From the NCBI GenBank assembly GCA_964016885.1, contig OZ024741.1, forward strand, positions 347,510,001-347,574,000: DNA of 64,000 nucleotides, written 5' to 3'. Of the stretch, positions 2,101-53,571 are shown piece by piece (the stretch's first letter is position 1; every line of letters starts with the position of its first letter). The DNA is from Eledone cirrhosa. Lineage: Eukaryota. Made by a program: the position numbers and the translations under genes. The notes under the pieces were generated by a model. The model was not told where the DNA came from and made no database searches. It worked only from the letters and a program-made list of their open reading frames with translations.

Positions 2101-2113
2101 CTCTATTTTAAAC

Positions 2114-5100: not shown

Positions 5101-5512
5101 CGACAGCGCGCAAGACAACGAAACCGTCATGCACGCACTCGTCCAGTGTCCGGACATTGCTGACTTGTGGGTTTATGTCGAACACCTGCTCTCACGTATA
5201 GGACGGATCCAGCTATCAGCTGAGTCCATCGTGAGGATTTCCCCGCCCTCTTCCTCTAGCCGGGAAGGGCAGGCAGTTTTTATCTGTCTGGTGGCCATGG
5301 CGAAAGAGATAGTATGGTGGACACGTTTGAAAGGGCTGAAGACGAGCACTTACCTTTTCGGTGATGCCCTGATTAACTTTTTCAAATTTCATTTGAAAAG
5401 GAAAATCAGGGTAGAGAGGGAAGTGCTCTCTTCCCAACATTTTGTTGAAAGATGGGTGAGAGAAGCAAGTATGGCCCGAGTGAATGGGCCTACTCTGAGT
5501 ATGTGTCTGTAA
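2114..5512 (+). pseudogene. Tx1 copy 1 ORF2 (APE endonuclease - reverse transcriptase - zinc finger), frameshifted
   Basis: MTSLRIGSINARGL, SETR, VYAP, GDWN, YLDR (APE); KSPGFDGLP, FRPITLL, DQSKAFDRVDH, RQGCPLS, FADD (RT); ETVMHALVQC near the C-terminus; split over ORFs 2114-2755, 2800-4170, 4128-4766, 5096-5512. Confidence 0.92.
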
Positions 5513-5979
5513 ATTAAAGGTGGAAAACTGGGAGAGGGCACTTGCCCTGGTGGTCAGGGTCACTGTGGCCTTTTAATGGGCTTTCTCCACAAATGTGCCT
5601 CGGACTCTACCCCCTATTGGGGAATTTTTCATTGTTATTTTTTTTATTACATCTGTTTTTTTACACGCAGAAATGCCCATTTGTACCGTCCTGTATTGTC
5701 CTGTACTGTCCTTAATGTCTACTTTATGTAAACCCTTGTGGTTAATAAAGAAAGCATTATTATTATTATTATTATTATTGGTTTAAGCGGACGTATTTTG
5801 CTCGCTCACAGTAAATCGCTTTATTTGCATGTTTAAATTATTTGTTGTTAAATATTTCTTGTTGTGTAAAGGATATAAGCCATTAGACTTTGACCCGTGA
5901 AGGGAATGTATAATATTTGGGCCTTTTGGCCCAAATATTTGAACTTTTTTTACATGTTAAAAAATTCACGAAGAAAAAA

Positions 5980-7967
5980 ATGATGGCTGAGCCACGCGCC
6001 CCAGCGATATGTCGGCTGTCGTGCGACAACGACGTAGAAGTTGAGACGAGCGCTACAGCGAAATTAACACACATTGATAACACAAACACCCCCACAAACA
6101 AGGTAAACAAAGACACCATTGATACCAATAAGAACTCTACTTTGAAAAAAAATGACACTAACAGCGACAATAAAAATACAGATACCAAAAAAAACCAAAC
6201 AAATACAGCAACAATATCAACACCACTAACATGAAAACAAATAGCGACAACACCAACAGCAACAATACCAACTGCACTGAGAACAACGGTGGCAGCAAAG
6301 ACAACAATGATAACAGCGACAGTGCTAACAACAACACCAACAAGAACAACGATAACAAAACCCCCAACGAAAAGAAGACCACTTTCGCTGGGGCAGCAGC
6401 AAAAAAGAGGCCATGCTTCAACATGGACCTATCAAACAAAGATGAAAAGTTGGCCCAGGCATGGAAGCTCATCAACCAAACTTGGGCCAACTTAACTGTC
6501 CCGGTACAAGCTATTGAGGCAGTGGAGCGCAAAACGGTGCATTATAGATGCATCTCAGCACAAACCAAAAGGGCAGCGTTAATCCCACAAGAAGATATTG
6601 AAGTCGCGCTGAGGTGCATCAGAGAAGACAGACAGTACATAGAGAGGGGCAGACAGTACGGTACCGTTTCGGTGTTGTTCAAGTCAGAAGCCCTCGCGAT
6701 GAAACACGCCATGACTCCTTGCAAAACCAGCAAGGTCATAATGTACCCCTCCCACATGGGAAAAAGAACGGCCCGTCTCCGCATTCCCAGAATCCCACCA
6801 GGACTTGACATGTGGTGGCTTCTGGGATGTGTGATTGTGGAGGGGACGGATACAGTCCCTATAGAAGTGACCAGAACGGCCAGAGAGGACTGGTCCGGGG
6901 TTGACCTGGGGATCCTTCTCCAGATCAGGCCCGAGAATGTGAAGACAATCCCAGACCACATGCGCCTTCAGAATGGGACTGTCATTCACATTATGACCGA
7001 AGGCTAAAGGCCGCAGTGTTTTGTTTGTGGGGAAAAAAACAATTTGTGAGCCTTCTGCCCTCAACTGCTGAAAGAGGCAAGGGATCGAAAAGCTCCACTG
7101 TTGCCGACGCCGGGGCGAGGACCACACCGAACACCTGCACCGGCAAACCCACCAACAACAACACCAATAGAAAGACCACCACTAACATTGACCACCCAGG
7201 GGGGAAACGAGGAAAGCTGTCAAATTCCCCCTCCCCCCCAAAATACACACACCAATAAAACCTTAAACATACAGATACACTTGCAGACACAGACCCCTCA
7301 TCTACCAGTAGTGAAAATGAGGGAAAACCCAAATCCCCCAAAATAAAAAAGGAAAACACAAAAAGAAAAAAAAACTCAACAAAGCACAAAAGCACCCACA
7401 ATTAAAAACACAGACACCACCCACGCAAACATCTCTCCAATAACACCAACAATCAACACCACCATCACCATCACCAGAATCCCCCAAACGCAAAAAACCG
7501 AAACAGACGCAAGAACAAATATACACACAAACATGTGAAACCACACACACCGCATTCACAACAAACACAGATACAACCGAAACAACACCACAAAAATCAT
7601 CACCACCACAGCCACGCAAACAAATAAAATCACACCAACAAAACATACAAACTTCGTGCTCGTCAGGAGGGCCAACAAGGAACTAATGGGCCTCGTAGCA
7701 CGAAGTGAAAATATACAAAAAGAGGGGGAAATCTTTTAATCGAGCACATTTCGCGTGCCTGAAGATTTGGTTCTGGTGCGAATGTCGCTCGATATATTCA
7801 AAGAAATACGAGACAGCTTTCCTCGGGACGTGGGAACCCCGAACGTAAAACCCACTTCAAGACTTTTAAAGAGGTTCCCAAAAGAAACCCCACTAACTAT
7901 GGAGGTCGAACAACCCACCTTCACTAGAGCCCGGAAGGTAAGTAAACCTCCCTCTCTCTCTGTTTAA
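5980..7967 (+). pseudogene. Tx1 copy 2 ORF1, frameshifted
   Basis: ORFs 5917-6234, 6231-7007, 7755-7967; Asn-rich N-terminus, TTFAGAAA, REDWSG, knuckle remnant PQCFVCGEK at ~7011-7040. Confidence 0.72.
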
Positions 7968-7976
7968 CCTGCCAAC

Positions 7977-10900
7977 ATGGCCGTATTAAGAGTAGGATGT
8001 TTAAATGTTCGAGGCCTGGGATCGTCCTGGAAGCAGGGTCACCTGATCAACGACCTCAGGTCTATAGAAATGGACGTAATTGCAGTCAGCGAGACCAGGA
8101 TTTCCGATACGCGCGCACTAGCCCCTATTTTCGACGACTACAGATCTTTACATCTGTTAGCCGGCCGGGAATGGGAGGCGGGGTGGCAGTGCTGTTTAGG
8201 AAAGGCCTGGATCTCGAGGTAAGGTCAATCTTCCGGGACCCGGACGGGAAGTTGGTGGTCCTTGACGTGAACAATAATGAAGGTGGTGCCTTTAGACCGG
8301 TGGCCGTCTATGCTCCTACTGGGGCAGGACGGCCGGTTTCTTTAGACGCCTGGAAGCCTTTCTGGGTACGTCTCGCCCTTTACTGTTAGCGGGGGACTGG
8401 AACGGCATCTTAGACGCAAGCTGGGACTGTGTAGGAGTATTCGGTAGTGCGGGGTGTAAAAGCCTCAAGAACCTGATCAGCCAGTTCCAAGTGTCTGACA
8501 GGTACCGACTAGATTTCCCTAATGCGCCAGTGTGGACCTGGGCTAACCGCATAGAGTCATCTAGATCGTATATAGACAGGATATTCATTAGGAAAATAGA
8601 CAGAAATAGTGTAAGCTGTCCACGTTTTGAAACGGTCGCCTATTCATCTCACAATTTTGTCGATCTAGATAAGACGCTTAGGTTAGGACCTGGTTACTGG
8701 AAGCTAAACATGTCATTTCCGGCACATAAGGCTTACAGGGACCAGTTCAAACTTTTAGTTAAGAAAAAGTTGACAGGGGGAGTCGTCAACAATAGATGGT
8801 CGGGGGCTCTCAAAAGAGAGATTAGAGTAAGTCTATAGAGTTTAGCAAAGAAGTAGCATTAGAGAAAAATAGAAAGGAGGGCGAGTTGGTAGATAAGTTA
8901 GACGAGGCTATTGGTAATGGCATTGCAACTGATGTGCTAGCGGCGAGAATGGCATTAGACCATTTCTTCAATGCGAAACACGAAGGTTGCATTGTCAGAG
9001 CTAAGGCGCGTGCTCTGAGAAACGAGGGAACCAAAGCTGTTCGATGGGCCCGCGTGGCTGAGGCGCAGCGTGGTAATAAAACCACGATTCGGTTTTTGAC
9101 GGACCGAGACGGGCACGAGCTGAACGATTCCAAGAGGATGTGTGAGGCCTTTCGCCAACATTTTGCTCGGTTGTTCGGGGGAAGTGGCGGGTCAGAGATG
9201 GTGGCGGACTTCAGTTCCTACTTCGATGGCCGCAACTCTCGACGGCTGACGCTGGGCGCGGCGAAAGACCAATTACTTCAGCCGAGATTCAGGATGCCCT
9301 TGTAGGATGCATGAGGCGCAAGTCACCCGGTTTGGATGGTCTGCCCTACGAGCTTTACGTAAATATGCCCGACTTGTTCTCCAATCTCCTCGAAGCCCTC
9401 TACTGCAACTGGCAGCAAAACGGGAGTATTCCCAGTTCTGTGAGCCGGGGCGTAGTGACGCTGATAAGGAAAGACGAGAACAAGAGGTACACATTAGACA
9501 ATTTCAGGCCCATAACTCTGCTCAACACAGAGTTTAAGATTTTGGCCAGGGTGTAAGCGAAGAGGTTGTCGCTTGTCGTCGGGTATTTGGTTGGGGAGGC
9601 GCAAACTTGCGCAATCCCAACCAGGTCTATACACGACAACCTCCATCTAATACGATACATCATAGAGAGGGTAGGGTGTAAACCTGGGGCTCTGATCAAT
9701 TTAGATCAATCGAAAGCATTCGATAGAGTCGACCATCGGTACCTGGATCCTGTCCTCAAGGCGGCTGTCTTCGGTCCCGTCTTCAGAAGCAGGATCGCTG
9801 CAATACACAGCGGCACCTGATCGATGGTCAAAATTAATGGCCACCTCTCGGAACCGTTTCAGGCTCCCGATCGGTCTGTCAAGGGTGCCTTCTCTCCTCT
9901 CTTCTGTACGTATTGACTCTCGAGCCTTTACTGCGGAAGCTGGAGCTGTTGCAGGGCATCCCGCTCGAACAGGGACGCGGAAAGGCCGTGTCGGCTTATG
10001 CGGACGACATCACCGTGATGGTGTCGGACACCTCAGAAATCGAGGTTGTCGGCAACTTATTGGAGGAATATGAAAGGTTGACGGGAGCAAAACTTAACCC
10101 GGAAAAGACAGTAGGCTTGCAACTCGGCACCTGGAGAGGCAAGTCCATGCCGTCCAACAGCGTCATTAGGCGCCGGACGGACGGACCGGTAAAGTTGCTA
10201 GGGGTTTGGTTCGGGCCAGACCTACAGGTGGATAAGAATTGGGACGAGGTGACGGGCAGGGTAGTCAGTCTCACCCAGAAATGGGCTGGGATGAAGCTAT
10301 CACTGAAAGGTCGGGCGGAGGTGGCGAACGCGTACATCGCGTCCGTCATCTACTACCGTCTGACTGTCGCTCCCTGCCCCCGTCCGCGCCTCGCCATCTT
10401 GGAGCGGCTCCTCTTCAAGTTCTTGTGGAGGGGTCAGGTTCCGCTGGAGAGGCGGTCCATCTTCTGCCAGCACCCTCTACGGGGAGGGCTGGGCATGCCG
10501 TGGCTAATGATGCGCAGGCACGCGCTGAAGCTGCGGCACCTCCAGATATTCTGCCTAAACGGTGAACAGGTGTGGTCGCCGTTTGTCGGATGGGCTTTTC
10601 CGCAGCTCGTTTCTTTGACTGAGTTGCAGTCGTGGGTCAAGAAGAGACCGAGAATGGGTGACCGGCATCTGGAATGGTGCCAGGCACTCACTGCCCTCTA
10701 CCAGGCGGGCAATGCGGTCAGTGGAACTTCCCCCAAGCGAGTTCTATAGAGGATTAGTGGTGGGCAACTGCGACGACGCATTCGGAGAGGCTCTGGGAGT
10801 CAACGAAGTCGAACTAACCAGTCTGTACCGGAGGACTTTCGAACCGGGGACGATGGATAATTTCGGGGGGCACTGCCGGTTCTAGATAAACTCTACAGGC

Positions 10901-11338
10901 ATGGAAGTGCTGTCAGACGGACCTGCCCGAGATGCGTGCAGAGCGACGAAACCGTTCTACACGCACTCGTCCAGTGTCCGTGCATTACTGACTTGTGGAG
11001 TTACGTTGAACAGCTGTTGTCACGTGTAGAACGGATCCGGATATCGTGAAGTCCATAGTGAAGATCGACCCACCGCCTTCTTTTGGCCAGGAAGGGCAGG
11101 CAATTTTCCTCTGTCTGGTGGCAGTAGCGAAAGAGGTTGTATGGTGGACGAGGTTGAAAGGACTGAAGACAGACACTTTTCTCTTCGGCCAGTCCCTCAT
11201 CAACTTTTTGAAGTTTCACTTGGGAAGGAAGGTGAGTGTGGAGAGAGAAGTGCTGCCCCCCAGTACATTTGCTGAAGGTGGGTGAATGTGGCGAGAATGG
11301 CCCATGTGAGTGGGCCTACTCTGGTCATGCGGCTGTAG
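7977..11338 (+). pseudogene. Tx1 copy 2 ORF2 (APE-RT-zinc finger), multiply disrupted
   Basis: MAVLRVGCLNVRGL, SETR, KSPGLDGLP, NFRPITLLNTEFKILA, DQSKAFDRVDH, AYADDIT; many stops and frameshifts. Confidence 0.92.
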
Positions 11339-16951: not shown

Positions 16952-16997
<46 letters not shown>

Positions 16998-17151
16998 TGT
17001 TATACTTTGGGAGTGTCATGTTGCCAATAGGAAACACACGCACCAGCTGCTTTCACTTCAATTTATTATATATTTATAAATTTACAAATTTATAAATCTA
17101 TAAATTTCTGGTTGGTTGGTTGGTTCCACAGCCAGATAGTTGTTTATATAT

Positions 17152-17196
17152 AGTCATAGTTATTTCGTCACACACTCTGTGACCTCTTCAGTGACT
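17152..17196 (-). ncRNA. Minimal type I hammerhead ribozyme (family A; stem III mutated)
   Basis: AGUCA-CUGAAGAG-GUCAC(agagugu)GUGAC-GAAA-uaac-UA-UGACU. Confidence 0.7.
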
Positions 17197-17317
17197 GGGG
17201 ATTCATTTCTTTGTTTCTGGTGATTCCTTTCTTTGTTTCTGTGCCTCTCCTTTGCTCTGTCCTACGCCATTTGGCGTAGGACAAAGGAGAGGCACAGAAA
17301 CAAAGAAAGGAATCCCC

Positions 17318-17362
17318 AGTCACTGAAGAGGTCACAGAGTGTGTGACGAAAGAACTATGACT
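17318..17362 (+). ncRNA. Minimal type I hammerhead ribozyme (family A)
   Basis: AGUCA-CUGAAGAG-GUCAC(agagugu)GUGAC-GAAA-gaac-UA-UGACU; stems I and II pair perfectly. Confidence 0.82.
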
Positions 17363-17644
17363 ATATATAAACAACTATCTGGTTGTGGAACCAACCAACC
17401 AACCAGAAATTTATAGATTTATAAATTTGTTAATTTATAAATATATAATAAATTGAAGTGAAAGCAACTGGTGCGTGTGTTTCCTATTGGCAACATGACC
17501 CTCCCAAAATATAACAATATCGGTTTCAACACACAATTTCAGATAAAGAATCTTGCTAAACAAATTCAAAAACGAAATATATATATACAGATATAGTAAT
17601 GTTAATTATTGTGAAGACTAAAATCCGAAGAGGGTTGGATAAGG

Positions 17645-22760: not shown

Positions 22761-23673
22761 ATAAACATGTCTATAGAATCACCAGATAAAATATATACAA
22801 TTTCCTATCCCAATTAGCATAATTAACCATATAAAAATCGATTAGACCAAGCTATAAGAATAAAGGCTTCTATGAAGAAATCTCCGAAAAATAACCGAAA
22901 GCAGCCCTTCGCGTCGGTTGCGATGGAGTATTTACCGAGTATTTCGACAGCGTGTATAAATCGCTCAGATATACAGTCAACTAAACAGAATTAGGTGTAA
23001 AATAAACAAGGAGAAAAGTGAACATATTTAGTTTCCTCTACCATGGTTTCGTCTGCATTTTAAGATATCCGATAACATTGGACATCTAGAGCACCGGACT
23101 CTTCAGGAAGTTAGCTCAAATTTAGACAATAAATTTTTCAAAGTGATTGCGCCAAGAATACATTAAAAAATGGCTAAGAATCGTGACGTAGCAGCGGTCA
23201 GGTTAGAAATAATGTGATTAGTTGCTTACGGCTGGTGGCCTTTTGCTAGAAAGCGCATCACAATACAGCCAAAATTGTATCTCAACCTAAGGGAGATTAT
23301 TACATATAAAGGTTTACATATATATATATGTGTGTGTGTGTTTTGCAACGGGTCACTTTGTGGCTCAATGAAGAGTTAATAAATTAAATAATCAGAGCTA
23401 TATACCATAAAACATGTCTATAGAATCACCAGATAAAATATATACCATTTCCTCTCCCAATTAGCATAATTAACCATATAGAAGCCTTTATTCATAGAAG
23501 CCTTTATTCTTATAGCTTGGTCTAATTGATTTTTTATATGGTTAATTATGCTAATTGGGAGAGGAAATGGTATATATTTTATCTGGTGATTCTATAGACA
23601 TGTTTTATGATATATAGCTCTGATTATTTAATTTATTTACTCTTCATTTAGCCACAAAGTGACCCGTTGCAAA

Positions 23674-23709
<36 letters not shown>

Positions 23710-25733: not shown

Positions 25734-25875
25734 TGGCGCATGGCTTAGTGGTTAGAGCATTGGGCTTGCAATCGAAAGGTTATGAGTTCAATTCTCGGAC
25801 CGGGTGATGTGTTGTTTCCTTCAGCAAGACACTTTATTTCACGTGGCTCCAGTTTACTCAGCTGTAGAAATGAGA
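25734..25875 (+). mobile_element. tRNA-SINE family 2 copy
   Basis: A box tggcttagtggttagag, B box gagttcaattctc, then cagcaagacactttatt core; homolog at 50993-51190. Confidence 0.75.
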
Positions 25876-30887: not shown

Positions 30888-30943
<56 letters not shown>

Positions 30944-30948
<5 letters not shown>

Positions 30949-31001
30949 AGTATGTATGTATACGTACATACATATATGTATACAGACGTACAGTAGCATG
31001 C

Positions 31002-31003
<2 letters not shown>
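30944..31003. repeat. Outer left arm of an older fold-back (inverted copy at 39621-39680)
   Basis: 60-bp reverse complement match with one mismatch (tagcatgcat vs atgcatgata). Confidence 0.85.
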
Positions 31004-31061
<58 letters not shown>

Positions 31062-31204
31062 ATACTTTGGGAGGGTCATGTTGCCAATAAGAAACACACG
31101 CACCAGTTGCTTTCACTTCAATTTAATTTAATATATATTTATAAATTTACAAATTTCTGGTTGGTTGGTTGGTTCCACAACCAGATAGTTGTTTATATAT
31201 ATAT

Positions 31205-31249
31205 AGTCATAGTTCTTTCGTCACACACTCTGTGACCTCTTCAGTGACT
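31205..31249 (-). ncRNA. Minimal type I hammerhead ribozyme in left pseudo-LTR
   Basis: Exact reverse complement of 38637-38681. Confidence 0.82.
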
Positions 31250-31546
31250 GGGGATTTCTTTCTTCGTTTCTGTGCCTTTCCTTTCTTCTATCCTACGCCA
31301 TTTTGTTTGTGTGTGGGTTGCGTGCTCAGTTTGCGCATGCGCCACATCCGGGTGTCTGTGTGTGTTTGTGTTCATTTTTCTATTTTTCTATTTATATTTG
31401 TTTGTTTATTTATTTATTTATTGTTGGTTGGTTGTTTGTTCTATGTGTGTGTGTGTTTTCATTTTGTCTTGTGTGTGTTTTCATTTTGTGTGTGTTTTCA
31501 ATTGTAAGTTGTTTGTTCTATGTGTGTGTGTGTTTTCATTTTGTCC

Positions 31547-34500
31547 TTAATTGTAAGTTGTGATGTTGCTGTTCCACTCATATTTTCTATTTAATTTTGG
31601 TTTTAATTCTTTTATGCTTACTGCCTCTGTAATTTGCCTAAACATTGCGTCTTTCTTGTGTGTGGATTCTATTTTTATTTCTATGCTCTCTAATTTACCC
31701 CTGTGTTCTATCTTAGCATGTTGGTAGAGCACAGATGATTCTTTACTATCTTGGAGGTCTCGCCAGTGTTCATTTATTCGTTCCCCTATACTACGAGCTG
31801 TCTCACCTATGTACACTATATTTTTGTTTCTACATTGTCCTTCAGTACATCTTATGCTATATACTACATTTCTAGTTTTACAGTTAATATGGGGGCTTAT
31901 TTTACAGGTTATACATTTCTTATCTATACATGAGGGTCTTTGGAACGGGTATGTCTTGCTAATAAGTGTTTTTACGGAGGTACCAGGTCTTTCTACTATC
32001 TTAATATTGAGATTATGTTTCTTTAGGGCCCTTCTAAATTTGTAGGCTAGTTCGCCTCTAGGGGTTGTATTGATGAACATTACACTCTGGTATTTATTGC
32101 TATCATACCATGAGTTTATTCTATTGGCCTTGTTCTTAGTTCTTTCTATTCTATTCCAAAATTTGCTCCTATACAAGGGGCAGGTCCCATTTATGTCATT
32201 ATTTACCATTTTTTCCCATTTGGTTCTGGCTCCTTTATACACTCTGATTCTATCTCTCTGATTGTAGCCGGAGAACTGCATACGGTGGATAAAGTGTTGT
32301 ATGTGTCTCTCTAGTTCTTCGGGGTTGCACATGCGGGACACATTTCTCATCACCCGTATCAAATCCGCAATCAGTATGTTGATTTTGGTATGGTCCGAAA
32401 TGGCCGAGTTTCGGTGGATCAGATGTTTGGAAGTCATGGGTTTGGCATAATGGGAATGGAGGATTTGTTTTTGGTTGTTAATAGTATCTAACCAGAGCTC
32501 TGTGTCTAGTACAGGTAATCGATGGTTGGTGTGTCTACTTGGGTATTCTATAGTAACTCTAATGCTCTGGTGGATGGAGTTTGCTATTTGCTGGATGCTT
32601 TCCATTGTGTTTTTCTCTGGTTCCTGACTGTTCTTTAGTGGGGGTGTCTTAACTACGATGTTTATATCATCTACGTAGCGGGAGTACATTATCAGGGTTA
32701 AGCTGTCTTCTAATTGTTCTTTAAGTTTTTGTTTAAGTCTACTGTCCCACCATACCATGAACAAGTTAGCTATGTCGCCTGCAATGCTAACACCAATGGC
32801 TGCTCCTTCCTCTTGGGCATATGTTTTACCATTAAATTTGAACATATGTTCCTTAAGGGTTAATTTTATGCTGGCCCCTACCGCATGTGCAATCATTTTC
32901 TTCAGTTCATCGTGGTTTTCGGGTGTCCGTATGGCTCTGGTCCACCCGTTCCATCTATCTGTGTGGCTTTTCTTGGCCATTGAGGTAATGGTAGGTGGTC
33001 TGCCTCTTGCTGGTCTTGTAGGGCACAGGTTGCTAAGGTCATAAGTGTCTAGGTAACTATTACTATGGGTAAGCTTAAGTAGAAGTCCCAGCTCACTGGT
33101 ATCAATCCCACGGAACTCAACCTTGCTCTCGCTGATCATTTCGACGCATTTCTCCACAGCAAAATCCACGTCAATAGATGGATACAGGGACACAACATCC
33201 ATACTGCCTATTATGCAGTTTGTTAGGTCCCCAGATCGGTTACCCGCGCCGATTCTGCTGAGGAGGTCCTCCGTGCTGTCACACACATCTGGGGACATCT
33301 CAATGATGGGGCGTATGATCAGGGAGAGGAAGTAGGACAGTCTGTAGTTACTAGCAATGTTAGCCCCACAGACTGGCCGTGTTGGTGGTCCCGCGGCAGG
33401 GTCCCAGCCCGTTTTATGGTCTTTTCGAAGCCCATACAACGCCGGCACGTCATTGTTCCAGGCCTGGAAGTTGTTGGCAGTCCTTTTGTTGGGCTGCATT
33501 ATATTTGTCCACATCACCATATGGGCATTGAGGGTTTTTTCTCTATCCTCATGCTCCTGTGGTGTTACCTCTCTTGTGTTAGTGATGTGGGGTTGCATTG
33601 CCTGGATGTAGTTTGGCAGGCTGACAACCGACATTCTGCCAGACTTGTCTGTTGGAAAGCATGCTATCTCTCCATTACGCGAGCGCTGCATGAGCTTACG
33701 CAAGCCATTTGCAGATTCTTCTCCCAGTTGCTGGGCCTCTATTCTATTATGCTTCTTGCTATACTGTTCTATAATATTTCTAAGTTCGGATTTAGCTATA
33801 CTAAATTGTGCTTCTGTTTGTTCATCGACCTGCGACGGCAACTGCGTGCGTTTGTTAAATGGCAAAGTCGTGGCGTGGACTCGTCGTAGGTCGAATGATT
33901 TATCGGAGGGGTTATAAAACGGAGAGTTCCAGGCTGCTGCTTTATGTGTACTAGTGCTATTGTTAGTTGTGTTGTTTCTATTTCCACCAACAGCAGCAGC
34001 CTCAGCTTCATGGTTGTTTCTATGTCTCTCATAATTACTCCTGTCTCTTTCCACTGGCTCAATGTTGTTATCTACCCTATTTTGTGTGTCTGTGTGTTCG
34101 TCTTGGTTATTCTCTTTGTCCTTAGTCTCCCTACTCCTTTTAATCCTATTACTTTCTCTTATTTCTCTGATTTCTGTGCTACTGTCATTACTTGTTTTCT
34201 GTGTCTGTGTGTTTGTTAAGATTGTAGTGGTGGTGAGAGGCATTGAATGTGTGTGTGTTGTTGTTGTTGATGTGTGTTGTTGTTGATGTGTGTTGTTGTT
34301 GATGTGTGTTGTTGTCTCCGTGTGTGTGTGTGTTATCGTTGTTGTGTGTGTTGTTATTGTTGTTTGTGTTTGCGTGTCTGTTGTTGTTGTATCTGGGTAT
34401 GTTGCTGTTGTTGTTGTTGTTGATGTGTGTGTTGTTGTTATTGTTGTCTCCGTGTGTGTTGTTATTGTTGTTTGTGTCTGCGTGTCTGTTGTATCTGGGT

Positions 34501-34950
34501 ATGTTGCTATTGTTGGTGTTGTATCTGGGTATGTTGCTATTGTTGTTGTTATTGTTGTTTGTGTCTGTGTGTCTGTTGTTGTTGGGATGTGTGTTGTATA
34601 TGTGTGTGCGTATATTGTTGCTTTTGTTTTTGTTTTTGATGCTCCAGCGTAGTTTCGTAAATGATTTTTCTATTTCTGACAGACAACTAATCATATTTAC
34701 CTTCTTGAATGTCGCAAATTTGGGTGGCAGACGTAACACAGACATTTCATTATTATCTATTTTCGTGTTTCCATAAATGTTGGTATTTTCATTGTTGAAC
34801 TCTTCAGATAATGAGGTGTCGGCCATGTTGATACCGTCAATTTTGTCGGGATATCTATTGGTATACTCTATAGTATCCCGATTTAGCTTTGCCTGTTTAA
34901 GCCACTTTAATTTTCTGTTAAAGTGCTTATTACATTCTTGAGTAATATAC
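31547..34950 (-). pseudogene. Penelope-like RT/GIY-YIG ORF, left arm; frameshifted by a 16-bp repeat indel near 34265-34300
   Basis: Split into ORFs 34188-34979 and 31547-34243 (898 aa, RT and EN intact); mirror coordinates shift by 16 across the Asn-rich repeat. Confidence 0.9.
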
Positions 34951-37900
34951 AGTACATTACTCAAGAATGTAATAAGCACTTTAACAGAAAATTAAAGTGG
35001 CTTAAACAGGCAAAGCTAAATCGGGATACTATAGAGTATACCAATAGATATCCCGACAAAATTGACGGTATCAACATGGCCGACACCTCATTATCTGAAG
35101 AGTTCAACAATGAAAATACCAACATTTATGGAAACACGAAAATAGATAATAATGAAATGTCTGTGTTACGTCTGCCACCCAAATTTGCGACATTCAAGAA
35201 GGTAAATATGATTAGTTGTCTGTCAGAAATAGAAAAATCATTTACGAAACTACGCTGGAGCATCAAAAACAAAAACAAAAGCAACAATATACGCACACAC
35301 ATATACAACACACATCCCAACAACAACAGACACACAGACACAAACAACAATAACAACAACAATAGCAACATACCCAGATACAACACCAACAATAGCAACA
35401 TACCCAGATACAACAGACACGCAGACACAAACAACAATAACAACACACACGGAGACAACAATAACAACAACACACACATCAACAACAACAACAACAGCAA
35501 CATACCCAGATACAACAACAACAGACACGCAAACACAAACAACAATAACAACACACACAACAACGATAACACACACACACACGGAGACAACAACACACAT
35601 CAACAACAACACACATCAACAACAACAACACACACACATTCAATGCCTCTCACCACCACTACAATCTTAACAAACACACAGACACAGAAAACAAGTAATG
35701 ACAGTAGCACAGAAATCAGAGAAATAAGAGAAAGTAATAGGATTAAAAGGAGTAGGGAGACTAAGGACAAAGAGAATAAACAAGACGAACACACAGACAC
35801 ACAAAATAGGGTAGATAACAACATTGAGCCAGTGGAAAGAGACATGAGTAATTATGAGAGACATAGAAACAACCATGAAGCTGAGACTGCTGCTGTTGGT
35901 GGAAATAGAAACAACACAACTAACAATAGCACTAGTACACATAAAGCAGCAGCCTGGAACTCTCCGTTTTATAACCCCTCCGATAAATCATTCGACCTAC
36001 GACGAGTCCACGCCACGACTTTGCCATTTAACAAACGCACGCAGTTGCCGCCGCAGGTCGATGAACAAACAGAAGCACAATTTAGTATAGCTAAATCCGA
36101 ACTTAGAAATATTATAGAACAGTATAGCAAGAAGCATAATAGAATAGAGGCCCAGCAACTGGGAGAAGAATCTGCAAATGGCTTGCGTAAGCTCATGCAG
36201 CGCTCGCGTAATGGAGAGATAGCATGCTTTCCAACAGACAAGTCTGGCAGAATGTCGGTTGACAGCCTGCCAAACTACATCCAAGCAATGCAACCCCACA
36301 TCACTAACACAAGAGAGGTAACACCACAGGAGCATGAGGATAGAGAAAAAACCCTCAATGCCCATATGGTGATGTGGACAAATATAATGCAGCCCAACAA
36401 AAGGACTGCCAACAACTTCCAGGCCTGGAACAATGACGTGCCGGCGTTGTATGGGCTTCGAAAAGACCATAAAACGGGCTGGGACCCTGCCGCGGGACCA
36501 CCAACACGGCCAGTCTGTGGGGCTAACATTGCTAGTAACTACAGACTGTCCTACTTCCTCTCCCTGATCATACGCCCCATCATTGAGATGTCCCCAGATG
36601 TGTGTGACAGCACGGAGGACCTCCTCAGCAGAATCGGCGCGGGTAACCGATCTGGGGACCTAACAAACTGCATAATAGGCAGTATGGATGTTGTGTCCCT
36701 GTATCCATCTATTGACGTGGATTTTGCAGTGGAGAAATGCGTCGAAATGATCAGCGAGAGCAAGGTTGAGTTCCGTGGGATTGATACCAGTGAGCTGGGA
36801 CTTCTACTTAAGCTTACCCATAGTAATAGTTACCTAGACACTTATGACCTTAGCAACCTGTGCCCTACAAGACCAGCAAGAGGCAGACCACCTACCATTA
36901 CCTCAATGGCCAAGAAAAGCCACACAGATAGATGGAACGGGTGGACCAGAGCCATACGGACACCCGAAAACCACGATGAACTGAAGAAAATGATTGCACA
37001 TGCGGTAGGGGCCAGCATAAAATTAACCCTTAAGGAACATATGTTCAAATTTAATGGTAAAACATATGCCCAAGAGGAAGGAGCAGCCATTGGTGTTAGC
37101 ATTGCAGGCGACATAGCTAACTTGTTCATGGTATGGTGGGACAGTAGACTTAAACAAAAACTTAAAGAACAATTAGAAGACAGCTTAACCCTGATAATGT
37201 ACTCCCGCTACGTAGATGATATAAACATCGTAGTTAAGACACCCCCACTAAAGAACAGTCAGGAACCAGAGAAAAACACAATGGAAAGCATCCAGCAAAT
37301 AGCAAACTCCATCCACCAGAGCATTAGAGTTACTATAGACTACCCAAGTAGACACACCAACCATCGATTACCTGTACTAGACACAGAGCTCTGGTTAGAT
37401 ACTATTAACAACCAAAAACAAATCCTCCATTCCCATTATGCCAAACCCATGACTTCCAAACATCTGATCCACCGAAACTCGGCCATTTCGGACCATACCA
37501 AAATCAACATACTGATTGCGGATTTGATACGGGTGATGAGAAATGTGTCCCGCATGTGCAACCCCGAAGAACTAGAGAGACACATACAACACTTCATCCA
37601 CCGTATGCAGTTCTCTGGCTACAATCAGAGAGATAGAATCAGAGTGTATAAAGGAGCCAGAACCAAATGGGAAAAAATGGTAAATAATGACATAAATGGG
37701 ACCTGCCCCTTGTATAGGAGCAAATTTTGGAATAGAATAGAAAGAACTAAGAACAAGGCCAATAGAATAAACTCATGGTATGATAGCAATAAATACCAGA
37801 GTGTAATGTTCATCAATACAACCCCTAGAGGCGAACTAGCCTACAAATTTAGAAGGGCCCTAAAGAAACATAATCTCAATATTAAGATAGTAGAAAGACC

Positions 37901-38339
37901 TGGTACCTCCGTAAAAACACTTATTAGCAAGACATACCCGTTCCAAAGACCCTCATGTATAGATAAGAAATGTATAACCTGTAAAATAAGCCCCCATATT
38001 AACTGTAAAACTAGAAATGTAGTATATAGCATAAGATGTACTGAAGGACAATGTAGAAACAAAAATATAGTGTACATAGGTGAGACAGCTCGTAGTATAG
38101 GGGAACGAATAAATGAACACTGGCGAGACCTCCAAGATAGTAAAGAATCATCTGTGCTCTACCAACATGCTAAGATAGAACACAGGGGTAAATTAGAGAG
38201 CATAGAAATAAAAATAGAATCCACACACAAGAAAGACGCAATGTTTAGGCAAATTACAGAGGCAGTAAGCATAAAAGAATTAAAACCAAAATTAAATAGA
38301 AAATATGAGTGGAACAGCAACATCACAACTTACAATTAA
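34923..38339 (+). CDS. Penelope-like polyprotein (reverse transcriptase + C-terminal GIY-YIG endonuclease), open but 5'-truncated at the palindrome axis
   Basis: 1138-codon open frame (first ATG 35076): PTDKSG, LYGLRKDHK, RPVCG, SMDVVSLYPSI, GAAIG, RYVDD, LPVLD; Cys linker CIDKKCITC..C; VVYSIRC..C..YIGET..RINEH..QH..H..E..LN. The called GTG start lies in the opposite arm and is not a real start. Confidence 0.93.
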   Translation: MLITFLSNIQYITQECNKHFNRKLKWLKQAKLNRDTIEYTNRYPDKIDGINMADTSLSEEFNNENTNIYGNTKIDNNEMSVLRLPPKFATFKKVNMISCLSEIEKSFTKLRWSIKNKNKSNNIRTHIYNTHPNNNRHTDTNNNNNNNSNIPRYNTNNSNIPRYNRHADTNNNNNTHGDNNNNNTHINNNNNSNIPRYNNNRHANTNNNNNTHNNDNTHTHGDNNTHQQQHTSTTTTHTHSMPLTTTTILTNTQTQKTSNDSSTEIREIRESNRIKRSRETKDKENKQDEHTDTQNRVDNNIEPVERDMSNYERHRNNHEAETAAVGGNRNNTTNNSTSTHKAAAWNSPFYNPSDKSFDLRRVHATTLPFNKRTQLPPQVDEQTEAQFSIAKSELRNIIEQYSKKHNRIEAQQLGEESANGLRKLMQRSRNGEIACFPTDKSGRMSVDSLPNYIQAMQPHITNTREVTPQEHEDREKTLNAHMVMWTNIMQPNKRTANNFQAWNNDVPALYGLRKDHKTGWDPAAGPPTRPVCGANIASNYRLSYFLSLIIRPIIEMSPDVCDSTEDLLSRIGAGNRSGDLTNCIIGSMDVVSLYPSIDVDFAVEKCVEMISESKVEFRGIDTSELGLLLKLTHSNSYLDTYDLSNLCPTRPARGRPPTITSMAKKSHTDRWNGWTRAIRTPENHDELKKMIAHAVGASIKLTLKEHMFKFNGKTYAQEEGAAIGVSIAGDIANLFMVWWDSRLKQKLKEQLEDSLTLIMYSRYVDDINIVVKTPPLKNSQEPEKNTMESIQQIANSIHQSIRVTIDYPSRHTNHRLPVLDTELWLDTINNQKQILHSHYAKPMTSKHLIHRNSAISDHTKINILIADLIRVMRNVSRMCNPEELERHIQHFIHRMQFSGYNQRDRIRVYKGARTKWEKMVNNDINGTCPLYRSKFWNRIERTKNKANRINSWYDSNKYQSVMFINTTPRGELAYKFRRALKKHNLNIKIVERPGTSVKTLISKTYPFQRPSCIDKKCITCKISPHINCKTRNVVYSIRCTEGQCRNKNIVYIGETARSIGERINEHWRDLQDSKESSVLYQHAKIEHRGKLESIEIKIESTHKKDAMFRQITEAVSIKELKPKLNRKYEWNSNITTYN

Positions 38340-38636
38340 GGACAAAATGAAAACACACACACACATAGAACAAACAACTTACAATTGAAAACACACACAA
38401 AATGAAAACACACACAAGACAAAATGAAAACACACACACACATAGAACAAACAACCAACCAACAATAAATAAATAAATAAACAAACAAATATAAATAGAA
38501 AAATAGAAAAATGAACACAAACACACACAGACACCCGGATGTGGCGCATGCGCAAACTGAGCACGCAACCCACACACAAACAAAATGGCGTAGGATAGAA
38601 GAAAGGAAAGGCACAGAAACGAAGAAAGAAATCCCC

Positions 38637-38681
38637 AGTCACTGAAGAGGTCACAGAGTGTGTGACGAAAGAACTATGACT
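38637..38681 (+). ncRNA. Minimal type I hammerhead ribozyme in right pseudo-LTR
   Basis: AGUCA-CUGAAGAG-GUCAC(agagugu)GUGAC-GAAA-gaac-UA^UGACU; predicted cleavage after 38676. Confidence 0.85.
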
Positions 38682-38884
38682 ATATATATATAAACAACTA
38701 TCTGGTTGTGGAACCAACCAACCAACCAGAAATTTGTAAATTTATAAATATATATTAAATTAAATTGAAGTGAAAGCAACTGGTGCGTGTGTTTCTTATT
38801 GGCAACATGACCCTCCCAAAGTATAACAATATCGGTCTCAACACACGATTTCAGATAAAGAATCTTGCTAAACAAATTCAGAAA

Positions 38885-38944
<60 letters not shown>

Positions 38945-38951
<7 letters not shown>

Positions 38952-39565
38952 TATATACACATATGCATACAGGTACACATACATATATGCACGCATCAGT
39001 TTAGCCGACGTTTATTATAACGCCTGCTTTGTTCGTTTGTTTGTCAACAAATCGAACAGCCTGAATTTATGCCATACGGTGTTAAGGCAACCACGTCACC
39101 TTTTTGTTCAACACTGACACAGGAACGATGTACTAGTTTCAAGCTTGTTAGCTATCATCAGCACCGTTTACCCATCTGCCAGATAGTTGAACGTTCGAAA
39201 GTATATACTTTACTTATGAAAATTAACAGCTGAGCAGCCTAATTTGCATATTGAGTGAGTTAAATCGGTCTGGCATACCGAAAACGATAAGTTGAAAAAA
39301 ATGAAAACGAAATTTCACTTTCGAACGTTCAACTATCTGGCAGATGGGTAAACGGTGCTGATGATAGCTAACAAGCTTGAAACTAGTACATCGTTCCTGT
39401 GTCAGTGTTGAACAAAAAGGTGACGTGGTTGCCTTGACACCGTATGGCATAAATTCAGGCTGTTCGATTTGTTGACAAACAAACGAACAAAGCAGGCGTT
39501 ATAATAAACGTCGGCTAAACTGATGCGTGCATATATGTATGTGTACCTGTATGCATATGTGTATA

Positions 39566-39625
<60 letters not shown>

Positions 39626-39680
39626 TGATACTGTACGTCTGTATACATATATGTATGTACGTATACATACATACTTACAT
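38945..39680. repeat. Older fold-back: inner arms ~38945-39202 / 39317-39575, 114-bp spacer, (TA)n, outer right arm 39621-39680
   Basis: ~258-bp arms are reverse complements with one difference seen (gttaagg vs ccttgac). Confidence 0.9.
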
Positions 39681-40024
39681 TTAAGTAAGTGCCATACTAA
39701 GAGTGAGAAATGAAATTTCGTTTTCATTTTTTTCAACTTATATATATATGCATACATATATATATATATAAATACATCAATATCTCTCTCAATATCTCCC
39801 CACACGTACACAATTAAGTGCTGAATGTATAAATATGTTAATTAATATTAAGTATCGTGAGTACAAAAAATTCTTTCAAAATACGCTTTCTAATGATATA
39901 AACATCTAAATTCCTGTCATAATTTATTTGGTTTCTCCGATAAGACGAAGAAACTGAAAAAGTTCGATGGTGATAGATATAATCTACTAATCCTGAAAGT
40001 AGAAGCATAGAATAATATAAATAA

Positions 40025-46745: not shown

Positions 46746-46758
46746 ATTATTATTATTA

Positions 46759-47933
46759 TCTGCTGTAAACACCCGCTACGTGGAGGGCTGGGCATGCCGT
46801 GGCTAATGATGCGCAGTCTTGCGCTCAGAGTACAACATCTCAACATCTTCCTCGACGCTGATCAGGTGTGGTCTCCGTTTGCTAGACGCGTATTTCCCCA
46901 GCTCATCTCCTTGACGGAGCTGCAGTCATGGGTCAAGCGAAGACCGAGAGGGAGCGCTTCGAGCCTAGAATGTCTTCAGGCACTCACAGCCCTCGGCCAA
47001 TCGGGCAATGTGATCGGTGGAAACCTCACCTTGACGTTCTATAGCGGGTTAGTGGAGGGGAAGAGCGACGACGTACTTGGGGAAACTCTAGGCGTCGACG
47101 AAACTAAACTAGCCAATCTCTTTGAGTGAAATTTCGGGCCCGGGCCTATGGACAACTTCCAGAAGTCCCTGGCCTAGCATTGCTACCGAGGAGATTTGCG
47201 AGTTCCGGATAAACTCTACAGGAATGGAGGTGCCGTCAGCTGGGCCTGTCCGAGATGCGCGCAGGGCGACGAAACCATCCTGCACGTACTCGTCCAGTGT
47301 CCGAGCATTGCTGGCTTGTAGATTTATGTCGAACACCTGCGGTCGCGTGTAGAATCGATCCGACTATCAGCTGAGTCCATCGTTAGGATTGCCCCGCCCT
47401 CTTCCTTTAGCCGGGAAGGACAGGCAGTTTTTATCTGCCTGGCGGCCATGGCGAAAGAGATTGTATGGTGGACACGTCTAAAAGGGCTGAAGACGAGCAA
47501 TTACCTCTTCGGTGATGCCCTGATTAACTTTTTCCAATTTAATTTGAAACGGAAAATCAGGGTAGAGGGGGAGGTGCTCTCTTCCTAGCTTTTTGTTGAA
47601 AGATGGGTGAGCGAGGCAAGAATGGCCCGAGTGAGTGGACCTACTCTGTGTATATGCCTGTAAATTGAAGGTGGAAAACTGGGAGAGGACAATTACCCTG
47701 GCGGCCAGGGACACCGTGGCTTTTTTTAATGGGCTTTCACCACGATGGCCCTCGGAAGTTTCCCCCTATTGGGGAATTTTTCATTGTTCTATTATCATAT
47801 CCTCTATTTTTTTTCTTTTTTACACGCAGAAATGCCCATTTGTACCGTCCTGTATTGAACTGTAATGTCCTTAATGTATACTTTATGTAAACCCTTGTGT
47901 TTAATAAAGAAAGCAATATTATTATTATTATTA
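46759..47933 (+). mobile_element. 5'-truncated Tx1-like copy A (copy-1 subfamily) with (TTA)n tail
   Basis: Aligns with ~4611-5779; GMPWLMMR.., VWWTRLKGLKT. Confidence 0.9.
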
Positions 47934-49418
47934 ATGCCGTCCAACAGCGTCGTCGGGCGCTGGACGGACGGACCTGTTAAATTGCTAGGGGTTTGGTTCG
48001 TTCTGGACCTCCAGACGGACAGAAACTGGGACGAGGTAACGAGCAGGGTGGCTTCTCTCACCCAGAAATGGGCGGAGAGGAAGCTATCCCGGAAAGGACG
48101 ACGGAGGTGGCTAACGCGTACATCGCGTCCGTTATCTGCTACCGCCTGACCGTCGTACCTTATCCTAAGTCCCGCCTGACTACGCTGGAGCGTTTGCTCT
48201 TTCGCTTTTTGTGGAAGGGACGCGCTCCGATGGTCAGGCGGTCCATCTGTTCTCAACACCCGCTACGTGGAAGGCTGGGCATGCCGTGGCTGATGATGCG
48301 CAGACACACACTCAGGCTACGTCATCTCCACCTCTTCCTCGACGGTGATCAGGTGTGGTCGCCGTTTGCTAGACGCGTATTTCTCCAGCTCATCTCCTTG
48401 ACGGAGCTGCAGTCCTGGGTCAAGCGAAGACCGAGAGGGAGCGCTTCGAGCCTGGAATGTCTTCAGGCACTCACAGCCCTCGACCAATCGGGCAATGTGA
48501 TCGGTGGAAACCCCACCTTGACGTTCTATAGCGGGTTAGTGGAGGGGAAGAGCGACGACGTACTTGGGGAAACTCTAGGTGTCGACGAAAATAAACTAGC
48601 CAATCTCTTTGGAAGAACTTTCGGGCCGGGGCCTATGGACAACTTCCAGAAGTCTCTGGCCTAGCATTGCTACCGAGGAGATTTGCGAGTTCCGGATAAA
48701 CTCTACAGGAATGGAGGTGCCGTCAGCCGGGCGTGTCCGAGATGCGCGCAGGGTGACGAAATCGTCCTGCTCGTACTCGTCCAGTGTCCGAGCATTGCTG
48801 ACTTGTAGGTTTATGTCGAACACCTGCGGTGCGCGTCTAGAACGGATCCGACTATCAGCTGCGTCCATTGTGAGGATTGCCCCGCCCTCTTCCTTTAGCC
48901 GGGAAGGACAGGCAGTTTTTATCTGTCTGGCGGCCATGGTGAAAGAGATAGTATGGTGGACACGTCTGAAAGGGCTGAAGACGAGGACTTACCTCTTCGG
49001 TGATGCCCTGATTAACTTTTTCCAATTTAATTTGAAAAGTAAAATCAGGGTAGAGAGGGAGGTGCTCTCTTCCTAGCTTTTTGTTGAAAGATGGGTGAGC
49101 GAGGCAAGAATGGCCCGAGTGAGTGGACCTACTCTGAGTATATGCCTGTAAATTGAAGGTGGAAAACTGGGAGAGGACAATTACCCTGGCGGCCAGGGAC
49201 ACCGTGGCTTTTTTTAATGGGCTTTCACCACGATGGCCCTCGGAAGTCTCCCCCCTATTGGGGAATTTTTCATTGTTCTATTATCACATCCTCTATTTTT
49301 TTTCTTTTTTACACGCAGAAATGCCCATTTGTACCGTCCTGTATTGAACTGTAATGTCCTTAATGTTTACTTTATGTAAACCCTTGTGGTTAATAAAGAA
49401 AGCATTATTATTATTATT
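47934..49418 (+). mobile_element. 5'-truncated Tx1-like copy B (copy-1 subfamily) with (TTA)n tail
   Basis: Aligns with ~4299-5779; MPSNSVVGRWTDGPVKLLGVWF. Confidence 0.9.
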
Positions 49419-52884: not shown

Positions 52885-53565
52885 AGGGGGTGTAACTAGG
52901 AGTTACTGCAGGTTCACCCGGGTGAGCACTCGATGTTTAGGTTCACTTCATTTTTCTTATAGCATTTTAAGAAGGTCCATCGAGCTGCGGGTTATTGAGT
53001 CGGGTAGGATCGATATAGATCGAACCTTTAGCTGATCAGTGGCGAAACGCGCGTCACCTATCAATAAATGCAATGAGGGAATAATCAATCGTCCTTTTAT
53101 CCTTTTATCCTTTTATCGAGAATCTAATTGTAATACGTGACGTATTCTATTCTATAGCGATTAGGTCTTCAAAATGTTTATTATAAACATACAGAATATT
53201 TTCGAATATTCTATGTCTATATTCACATATATATCGCTATTTCAGAGCATTTATTCCAATTTCTAATTTCTGCCGGACCGGCAACCGCTCTTTCAAACCA
53301 GTTCCTGTACACGGCTAAGTATTCTATAAGTCTCTAGCTGTGTCATTCTCGATAAAAGCACTGGATATGTAGTCCTGATGAATTCTAACAAGAATGAAAC
53401 GCGTAGACTTACTTCCCTTGCTTTTATCGAGAATCTAATTGTAATACGTGACGTATTCTATTCTATAGCGATTAGGTCTTCAAAATGTTTATTATAAACA
53501 TACAGAATATTTTCGAATATTCTATGTCTATATTCACATATATATCGCTATTTCAGAGCATTTAT

Positions 53566-53571
<6 letters not shown>
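52883..53571 (+). mobile_element. Composite non-coding hammerhead element (family D, retrozyme-like) inside a (TA)n tract
   Basis: 151-bp direct repeat 53110-53260 / 53421-53571 (period 311), no difference seen, enclosing a hammerhead; (TA)n 52845-52882 and 53571-53637. Confidence 0.78.
53345..53434 (+). ncRNA. Extended type I hammerhead ribozyme (family D)
   Basis: Core 53371-53409 AGUC-CUGAUGA-AUUCU(aaca)AGAAU-GAAA-CGCG-UA^GACU; distal stem I 53345-53360 pairs with 53419-53434 (16 bp) across an internal loop. Confidence 0.88.

Follow-up and report, generated by a model that had tools for sequence, protein, structure and literature searches.

Penelope-like elements (PLEs) typically carry an adjacent inverted, 5'-truncated copy and a tail on one side only, as described in the available text of one survey of the group (PMC8557442). 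In vitro work on a PLE of Anolis, as far as its available text goes, found that both strands of the target are cut and extended and that two start sites on the RNA flank the tail (PMC11167929). Here we characterize a 7.8-kb palindrome in the genome of Eledone cirrhosa, formed by two ~3.9-kb arms of such an element that meet head to head in a stretch of 64,000 nucleotides (assembly GCA_964016885.1, contig OZ024741.1, positions 347,510,001 to 347,574,000; hereafter the window, numbered from its first letter). The palindrome is one insertion with a tailed and a tail-less arm of one lineage, its outer ends lie at end points fixed across the family, and the family as a whole has an excess of symmetric joins. 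We propose, with a probability of roughly 55%, that it arose as a single young insertion into a (TA)n tract, through priming by both cut target strands, at start sites 54 nt apart, followed by a head-to-head join, probably with a fold-back at position 337 of the element.

Self-BLAST of the window recovered positions 31054 to 38832 as a single inverted match with 99.3% identity, and a global alignment of the arms counted exactly 10 substitutions and one 16-bp indel. This agrees with a preliminary description made from the letters alone, which had reported two ~3.9-kb arms around a 9-nt spacer, with about 10 substitutions that lack an A-to-G bias and one 16-bp indel. Using as a coordinate reference the natural unit of 4,279 bp taken from a tandem copy (L047), the left arm starts at unit 340 and the right arm at unit 337, with a 2-nt overlap between them, which amends the earlier statement that both are truncated at the same codon. 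About 140 N-terminal codons of 1,268 are missing from both arms, as is the upstream pseudo-long terminal repeat (pLTR). At the 3' side the right arm extends to unit 4279 and the left arm to 4225, and the mirror symmetry that was claimed for the whole element therefore breaks at a 54-nt tail carried by the right arm only. The axis at 34951 is correct as a centre; in the spacer, 7 nt are native to the element and another 2 nt complete it, and it can also be parsed as a 1-nt centre, a 2-nt microhomology, and an eleventh mismatch (34947/34955), the left-arm letter of which was found in 0 of 41 other arms. The junction sequence occurs once in the 3.0-Gb assembly, which rules out that the palindrome was copied as a unit.

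The insertion sits in the (TA)n tract of another repeat with a 491-bp unit, and its flanks are the two halves of that repeat, which lie side by side across (TA)n in copies that are empty (26 matches, from 5 loci that partly overlap). Because the flanks are collinear with empty copies and not mirrored, they indicate a single insertion; an inverted duplication reaching into the flanks had been suspected from a mirrored 50-nt motif, but this motif belongs to the host repeat and has 31,616 matches. The 11 arm differences are absent from the 39 to 65 other arms covering each site and are split between the left (5) and right (6) arms, and the youngest insertions of the family have 0 to 1 differences per 2 to 3.3 kb of arm overlap, which places a bound on assembly error. 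We read the 11 differences as mutations acquired after insertion, about 0.14% per arm, and the absent A-to-G bias is thus uninformative on RNA editing. An origin of the arms from two source elements is excluded here, since the differences are private and no lineage site is discordant. Three variants are common to both arms, and no other copy carries all three together; both arms come from one template lineage, and the shared variants fit one template while not separating fold-back, two copies of one RNA, and gene conversion. The three may be alleles of the source, errors of reverse transcription, or products of gene conversion, and similar numbers of arm-shared variants occur in asymmetric older insertions. 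Two copies with related end points, L184 and L038, lack the three variants and were rejected as offspring of the locus.

This structure is not unusual, as the preliminary description had taken it to be, but a long case of a common insertion class. The assembly contains 13,642 exact matches to the tail, 13,874 to the tail-less end with (TA)n, and 571 to the arm at unit 430. The first 100 tail matches on contig C1, taken by position, define 95 regions, of which we scored 80; this sample is anchored on tails and thus misses pairs of two tail-less arms, one of which (L036) was seen in a separate long set. A head-to-head partner arm was found in 59 of the 80 insertions, making this the commonest form in the family; 47 of these pair a tailed with a tail-less arm, 2 are tailed on both sides, and 10 have a cut or altered end. 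The arm reaching further 5' is the tail-less one in 21 of the 47 and the tailed one in 17, with the two level within 10 nt in 9; in the 21, neither arm contains the other (e.g., L060, where 224-4225 is joined to 2506-4279). Outer ends throughout lie at two fixed 3' positions and inner ends are truncated 5' at varying positions, a pattern that arms made as first-strand complementary DNA (cDNA) should show, and junctions carry 1 to 3 nt of microhomology or short templated duplications. In L184, L062, L065, and L192 the junction sequence is tandemly duplicated over a short length, presumably in the manner of the templated insertions of polymerase-theta end joining. Of 50 insertions with long overlaps, almost all have the same lineage alleles in both arms. 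In L056 (C3:173634236-173644235) 7 lineage-polymorphic sites distinguish one arm from the other and private differences are absent, a pattern that points to two template RNAs in one insertion, or to later conversion. The window itself holds a second symmetric head-to-head insertion, 580 bp long (16996-17574) and ~90 to 93% identical to the reference unit, which follows the family rule in having one tailed and one tail-less arm.

Symmetry at the junction is overrepresented in this sample. Junction offsets are bimodal, with eleven at 0 to 11 nt and the next at 41, and the symmetric class (<=11 nt) comprises 11 of 59 junctions against 1.6 expected on random re-pairing of the arms, a count reached in 0 of 20,000 shuffles. 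Removal of a hot spot at 3945-3990 leaves 7 of 51 against 1.2 expected, and removal of a second at 4105-4135 as well leaves 4 of 42 against 0.8 (p 0.008). The symmetric insertions in the sample span 160 to 1,645 bp. Where the offset is 3 to 11 nt, the extra bases are on the tailed arm in 7 of 8 junctions, a weak tendency scored by eye. Large cases also exist: L065 (C1, ~66.668-66.676 Mb) is a symmetric palindrome of 8,138 bp, larger than the one studied, with its junction at unit 195/199, and in L034 (C369) two near-complete units are inverted over 8,646 bp. The first 100 matches at unit 430 yielded one symmetric pair, which suggests a handful of palindromes of such size per genome.

These observations can be accommodated as follows. 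The GIY-YIG endonuclease (EN) would nick both strands of (TA)n; one 3' end would prime reverse transcription at unit 4279 and the other at 4225. Both products would be minus strands, unable to pair with each other at length, and would usually stop independently of each other and be joined by microhomology of a few bases. In roughly one case in five, one cDNA may instead fold back on itself, after which the plus strand made by the fold-back would anneal to the second cDNA and give a mirror-symmetric insert. At this locus the tailed copy would have folded back at unit 337, and the 11 arm differences would have arisen after insertion. We infer two priming events, one per strand, from the Anolis results cited above, in which both target strands were extended and two starts flanked the tail (PMC11167929, available text).

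Several points weigh against this reading. Four of the 11 symmetric cases lie at the hot spot at unit 3950-3975 (16 of 139 starts) and three at a natural AT palindrome near 4117, while only 2 of 55 long head-to-head insertions are symmetric among 75 loci picked for near-5' reach, and 21 of the 80 sampled insertions were scored without any inverted arm. In the Anolis system both strands used both start sites without difference, according to the available text (PMC11167929), and the pairing of a tailed with a tail-less arm is thus not predicted by it alone. Here the tail-less arm lies wholly within the tailed one, which a single cDNA that was trimmed afterwards would explain as well. Finally, unit 337-340 is a recurrent stop, seen at 337 in L184 and at 340 in L038, both single-armed and unrelated to this locus, so two cDNAs could have stopped there independently.

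The last point leads to a real though considerably less probable alternative, in which two-ended priming needs no hairpin: both cDNAs would stop at unit 337-340, at a strong reverse transcriptase (RT) stop or the broken 5' end of an RNA, and be joined through the AC/GT 2-nt microhomology. Stops at 195-199, 224, 76, and 86 recur as well among 28 listed starts, and the discordant lineage sites of L056 point to a direct join of two templates. This explanation is opposed by the symmetric excess, which survives both the re-pairing of pooled stops and the removal of hot spots. In addition, with 571 arms at unit 430 against more than 13,000 ends of each kind, a near-full-length coincidence within 3 nt should be rare, and two near-full-length symmetric cases, the studied locus and L065, nonetheless exist.

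The preliminary description had instead proposed a snap-back, hairpin-primed second-strand intermediate; if a tail-primed cDNA snaps back and primes its own second strand, later cutting would have to make the tail-less end. The symmetric excess and the single template lineage support its snap-back element, the tailed arm here contains the whole other arm plus 3 nt, and the bottom strand forms a stem closed by a loop of 3 nt. Craig et al. moreover attribute the tail to resolution by the endonuclease (PMC8557442, available text). We nevertheless consider it unlikely: a single snap-back cannot be the general route, since it cannot yield the 21 of 47 insertions, L060 among them, in which the tail-less arm reaches further and neither arm contains the other. 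The tail ends also match RT start sites in vitro in the available text of PMC11167929, and with cutting a further mechanism would be needed to arrive at these same end points. Self-priming on an antisense template, put forward for rotifer Penelope elements from the palindromes at their head-to-head junctions (PMC3846280, available text), is quite improbable for this family, in which 3' ends are fixed and 5' ends variable as sense-RNA templates predict, and the available in vitro work used sense RNA (PMC11167929). An assembly artefact from fold-back chimeric reads is less probable still, because the unmirrored flanks adjoin in empty host-repeat copies, a tail on just one of the arms accords with the family rule, and 11 private differences contrast with the 0 to 1 of young insertions, even though reads over 34900-35260 gave no clear support for the axis (no joint, depth zero at 34900-34938 in three contig sets and ~1 in one restriction site-associated DNA sequencing [RAD-seq] run, from 4 of 24 listed runs that may derive from other individuals or species). 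The palindrome is thus most likely a real insertion.

We tentatively suggest, at slightly less than even odds, that PLEs integrate by obligate two-ended reverse transcription in which the ribonucleoprotein assigns one of the two start sites to each cut strand, that most insertions therefore start out as a tailed and a tail-less arm in head-to-head orientation, and that a separate fold-back turns about a fifth of insertions into perfect palindromes of up to 8 kb. If so, this family has seeded about ten thousand inverted repeats, of which 1,500 to 2,000 would be hairpin-perfect (extrapolated from 59 and 11 of 80).

The family has the features of a canonical PLE with a C-terminal endonuclease: one open reading frame (ORF) coding for an RT and, at its C terminus, a GIY-YIG domain, partial tandems that form pLTRs, an inverted 5' copy, an optional tail, and a predicted hammerhead motif in the pLTR. 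The full ORF in L047 encodes 1,268 amino acids (aa) and starts inside the preceding pLTR; 38 pLTR-plus-unit starts were found in other fetched loci, 15 of them with an ORF of more than 1,200 aa (some loci overlap), while the studied locus has no upstream pLTR. The claim that RT and GIY-YIG are intact in both arms holds for the domain frames, which are open in each, but not for the left arm as a whole, whose frame, owing to the extra 16 bp, stops at 252 codons, ahead of the RT. Pfam searches with parts of the arm protein matched RVT_1 (YVDD-type RT; E 1e-4, below the cut-off) and GIY-YIG (E 2.7e-5, above it), and the whole 1,127-aa protein gave no Pfam match. Among 249 homologues the best named one is from Octopus vulgaris (69%). 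A C-x4-C-x2-C linker at arm residues 1001-1009 and the C, C, H, H residues of the EN fit the CX2-5CxxC linker and CCHH of Neptune and Nematis, and together with the C-terminal EN they place the element, as judged from these motifs, in one of these two clades. The linker excludes Penelope/Poseidon, which has no Cys linker; the Hydra clade (CxCx5C linker, DKT, RWK, no CCHH) is excluded by the presence of DKSG and CCHH and the absence of RWK, and Naiad/Chlamys by their N-terminal endonuclease. Compared by eye, the short distance from the Cys cluster to GIY is similar to that in the Nematis rows of a published alignment, a reduced linker being one mark of Nematis versus Neptune. The copy itself cannot make the full-length protein.

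The preliminary description also held that each arm ends in an outward-facing hammerhead ribozyme and that a read-through transcript would be trimmed by it and form double-stranded RNA, a potential siRNA/piRNA or ADAR substrate that silences the family. Our pattern search, which gave 223 matches in the fetched loci, did find one motif in each arm (predicted helix I of 5 bp, helix II of 6 bp, no stable helix III, core CUGANGA/GAAA), but it is a minimal motif, the predicted cut lies ~210 nt inside the tailed end, and an Rfam search scored no hammerhead at the locus. The tail region folded no better than shuffled sequences did. Each strand carries one sense hammerhead with a perfect antisense copy upstream (66/66 nt identical); as the antisense copy would be transcribed first, the hammerhead would probably be paired rather than folded. 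Minimal PLE hammerheads are furthermore reported as inactive as monomers and weak as dimers (PMC4209133, available text). The locus also has no upstream pLTR, and no RNA run appeared among the sequencing runs listed as containing it. Ribozyme trimming, double-stranded RNA, and silencing by this locus are therefore unsupported and doubtful; if hairpin RNA has any effect, it would come from thousands of loci rather than from this one. The copy is most likely a dead-on-arrival by-product and not a selected silencing locus. Cleavage at the hammerhead as the main source of template 5' ends is likewise unsupported: 5 of 139 starts fall at 4058-4075, and none of the symmetric joins does. The 5'-truncation hot spot at unit 3950-3975 corresponds to about 38565-38590 of the window, ~50 to 70 nt upstream of the hammerhead, and may mark where the template RNA's 5' end lies.

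Table 1. Features of the palindrome and its flanks in window coordinates.
Feature	Position	Strand	Basis
Left arm, tail-less, unit 340-4225 of the 4,279-bp Penelope-like unit	31054..34950	-	Self-BLAST, arm alignment
Right arm, tailed, unit 337-4279	34949..38886	+	Arm alignment, unit comparison
Axis and spacer, centre 34951	34947..34955	.	Junction unique in assembly
54-nt tail; with the pLTR end, encodes the first 27 ORF codons (ATG 38807)	38833..38886	+	
5'-truncated ORF open to stop: RT (YVDD near 37209), C-x4-C-x2-C ~37956-37982, GIY-YIG from ~38019	34956..38339	+	
Left-arm RT and GIY-YIG frame, out of frame with its own 5' part	31547..34669	-	16-bp tandem duplication near 34300-34316
Minimal type-I hammerhead motif, predicted cut after 38676	38637..38681	+	Own pattern search
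Identical hammerhead motif, left arm	31205..31249	-	Own pattern search
Left flank: end of 491-bp-unit host repeat and (TA)n target tract	30941..31053	.	
Right flank: remaining (TA)n tract and remaining host repeat, itself head to head	38887..39741	.	

The host repeat (30941-31003 and 38915-39741; also L217-L221) has an internal (TA)n and forms long tandem arrays of its 491-bp unit, and the 31,616 motif matches given above are exact. Here it too is in a head-to-head arrangement in which one end is short and the other ~60 nt longer, as in PLEs; the hammerhead pattern had no match in the 491-bp-unit repeat. It is possibly a non-autonomous satellite mobilized by PLEs. Elsewhere in the window, a 358-bp imperfect palindrome (23329-23686, ~91%) resembling a miniature inverted-repeat transposable element lies between microsatellites. 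ORF translations indicate decayed copies of long interspersed nuclear elements (LINEs), with AP-endonuclease-like and RT-like frames, at 1900-11300 and 46758-49418, the latter with a 1.2- to 1.5-kb tandem duplication. A different hammerhead-like motif (53371-53410, plus strand) beside a 151-bp exact direct repeat (53110-53260 and 53421-53571) possibly belongs to another PLE or retrozyme family, and a weak tRNA match of 29.2 bits (25741-25798, plus strand) is probably the head of a short interspersed nuclear element.

Taken alone the locus matters little, being a long, non-autonomous example of the usual shape of a Penelope insertion. The family, however, offers thousands of junctions with which to address how PLEs form tandem and inverted insertions and the tail. 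The rule that tailed arms pair with tail-less ones can be counted, ties a published in vitro result to genomic structure, and makes clear predictions, a modest contribution. This young family may, in addition, be a large source of hairpin RNA and unstable palindromic DNA.

In LINE-1 twin priming in mammals, both target strands prime cDNA and a microhomology join produces an inversion. The two-strand priming and microhomology join proposed here are alike; however, in twin priming the second primer is internal and the parts do not overlap, whereas here the starts of both arms lie within 54 nt of the 3' end and the arms repeat one sequence. Publications on PLEs already describe inverted copies, tails, and self-priming; neither an explicit model of two-ended priming nor a tally of tailed against tail-less arms was found in the literature searched, with most subscription papers (e.g., Arkhipova 2006; Evgen'ev and Arkhipova 2005) outside its scope. 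The available text of 10.64898/2026.07.22.740005 and PMC13282606 held nothing further on inverted structure, and that of PMC8557442 gives no numbers for tailed versus tail-less arms or for symmetric joins. In the available text of PMC11167929, "head-to-head" is absent and "inverted" is used only for a blocking nucleotide, and two-strand priming is not tied to inverted arms.

A close match in overall form is with the endonuclease-positive PLEs of Craig et al. 2021 (PMC8557442), which share 5' truncation, partial tandems forming pLTRs, an inverted 5'-truncated neighbour, a tail that is often one-sided, a preference for (TA)n targets that goes with the Cys linker, and a pLTR hammerhead. The tail is longer here (54 nt versus 30 to 40), and the inverted arm is near full length and symmetric, unlike the insertion units described there. 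The predicted hammerhead resembles the minimal metazoan PLE motifs of Cervera and de la Pena 2014 (PMC4209133) in its short helix I, long helix II, vestigial helix III, unpaired base at the 5' end of helix II, and G-C first pair, and differs from them in that its commonest variant has non-palindromic loop-3 bases. Penelope elements of Adineta vaga (Arkhipova et al. 2013; PMC3846280) likewise have head-to-head inverted repeats with palindromic junctions, a pLTR and tail that encode the ORF start, and long inverted structures that hinder assembly. The antisense-template self-priming suggested for them contrasts with our data, which favour two sense-templated cDNAs, and they come with small-RNA data, whereas the element here is known from DNA alone. 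Poseidon of Anolis carolinensis, PAc (Frangieh et al. 2024; PMC11167929), belongs to a different clade without the Cys linker found here, and its hammerhead overlaps the start codon rather than lying ~140 nt upstream. It is nonetheless alike in its two RT starts flanking the tail, the cutting and extension of both strands, its AT-rich targets, and a tail that lies inside the start of the ORF.

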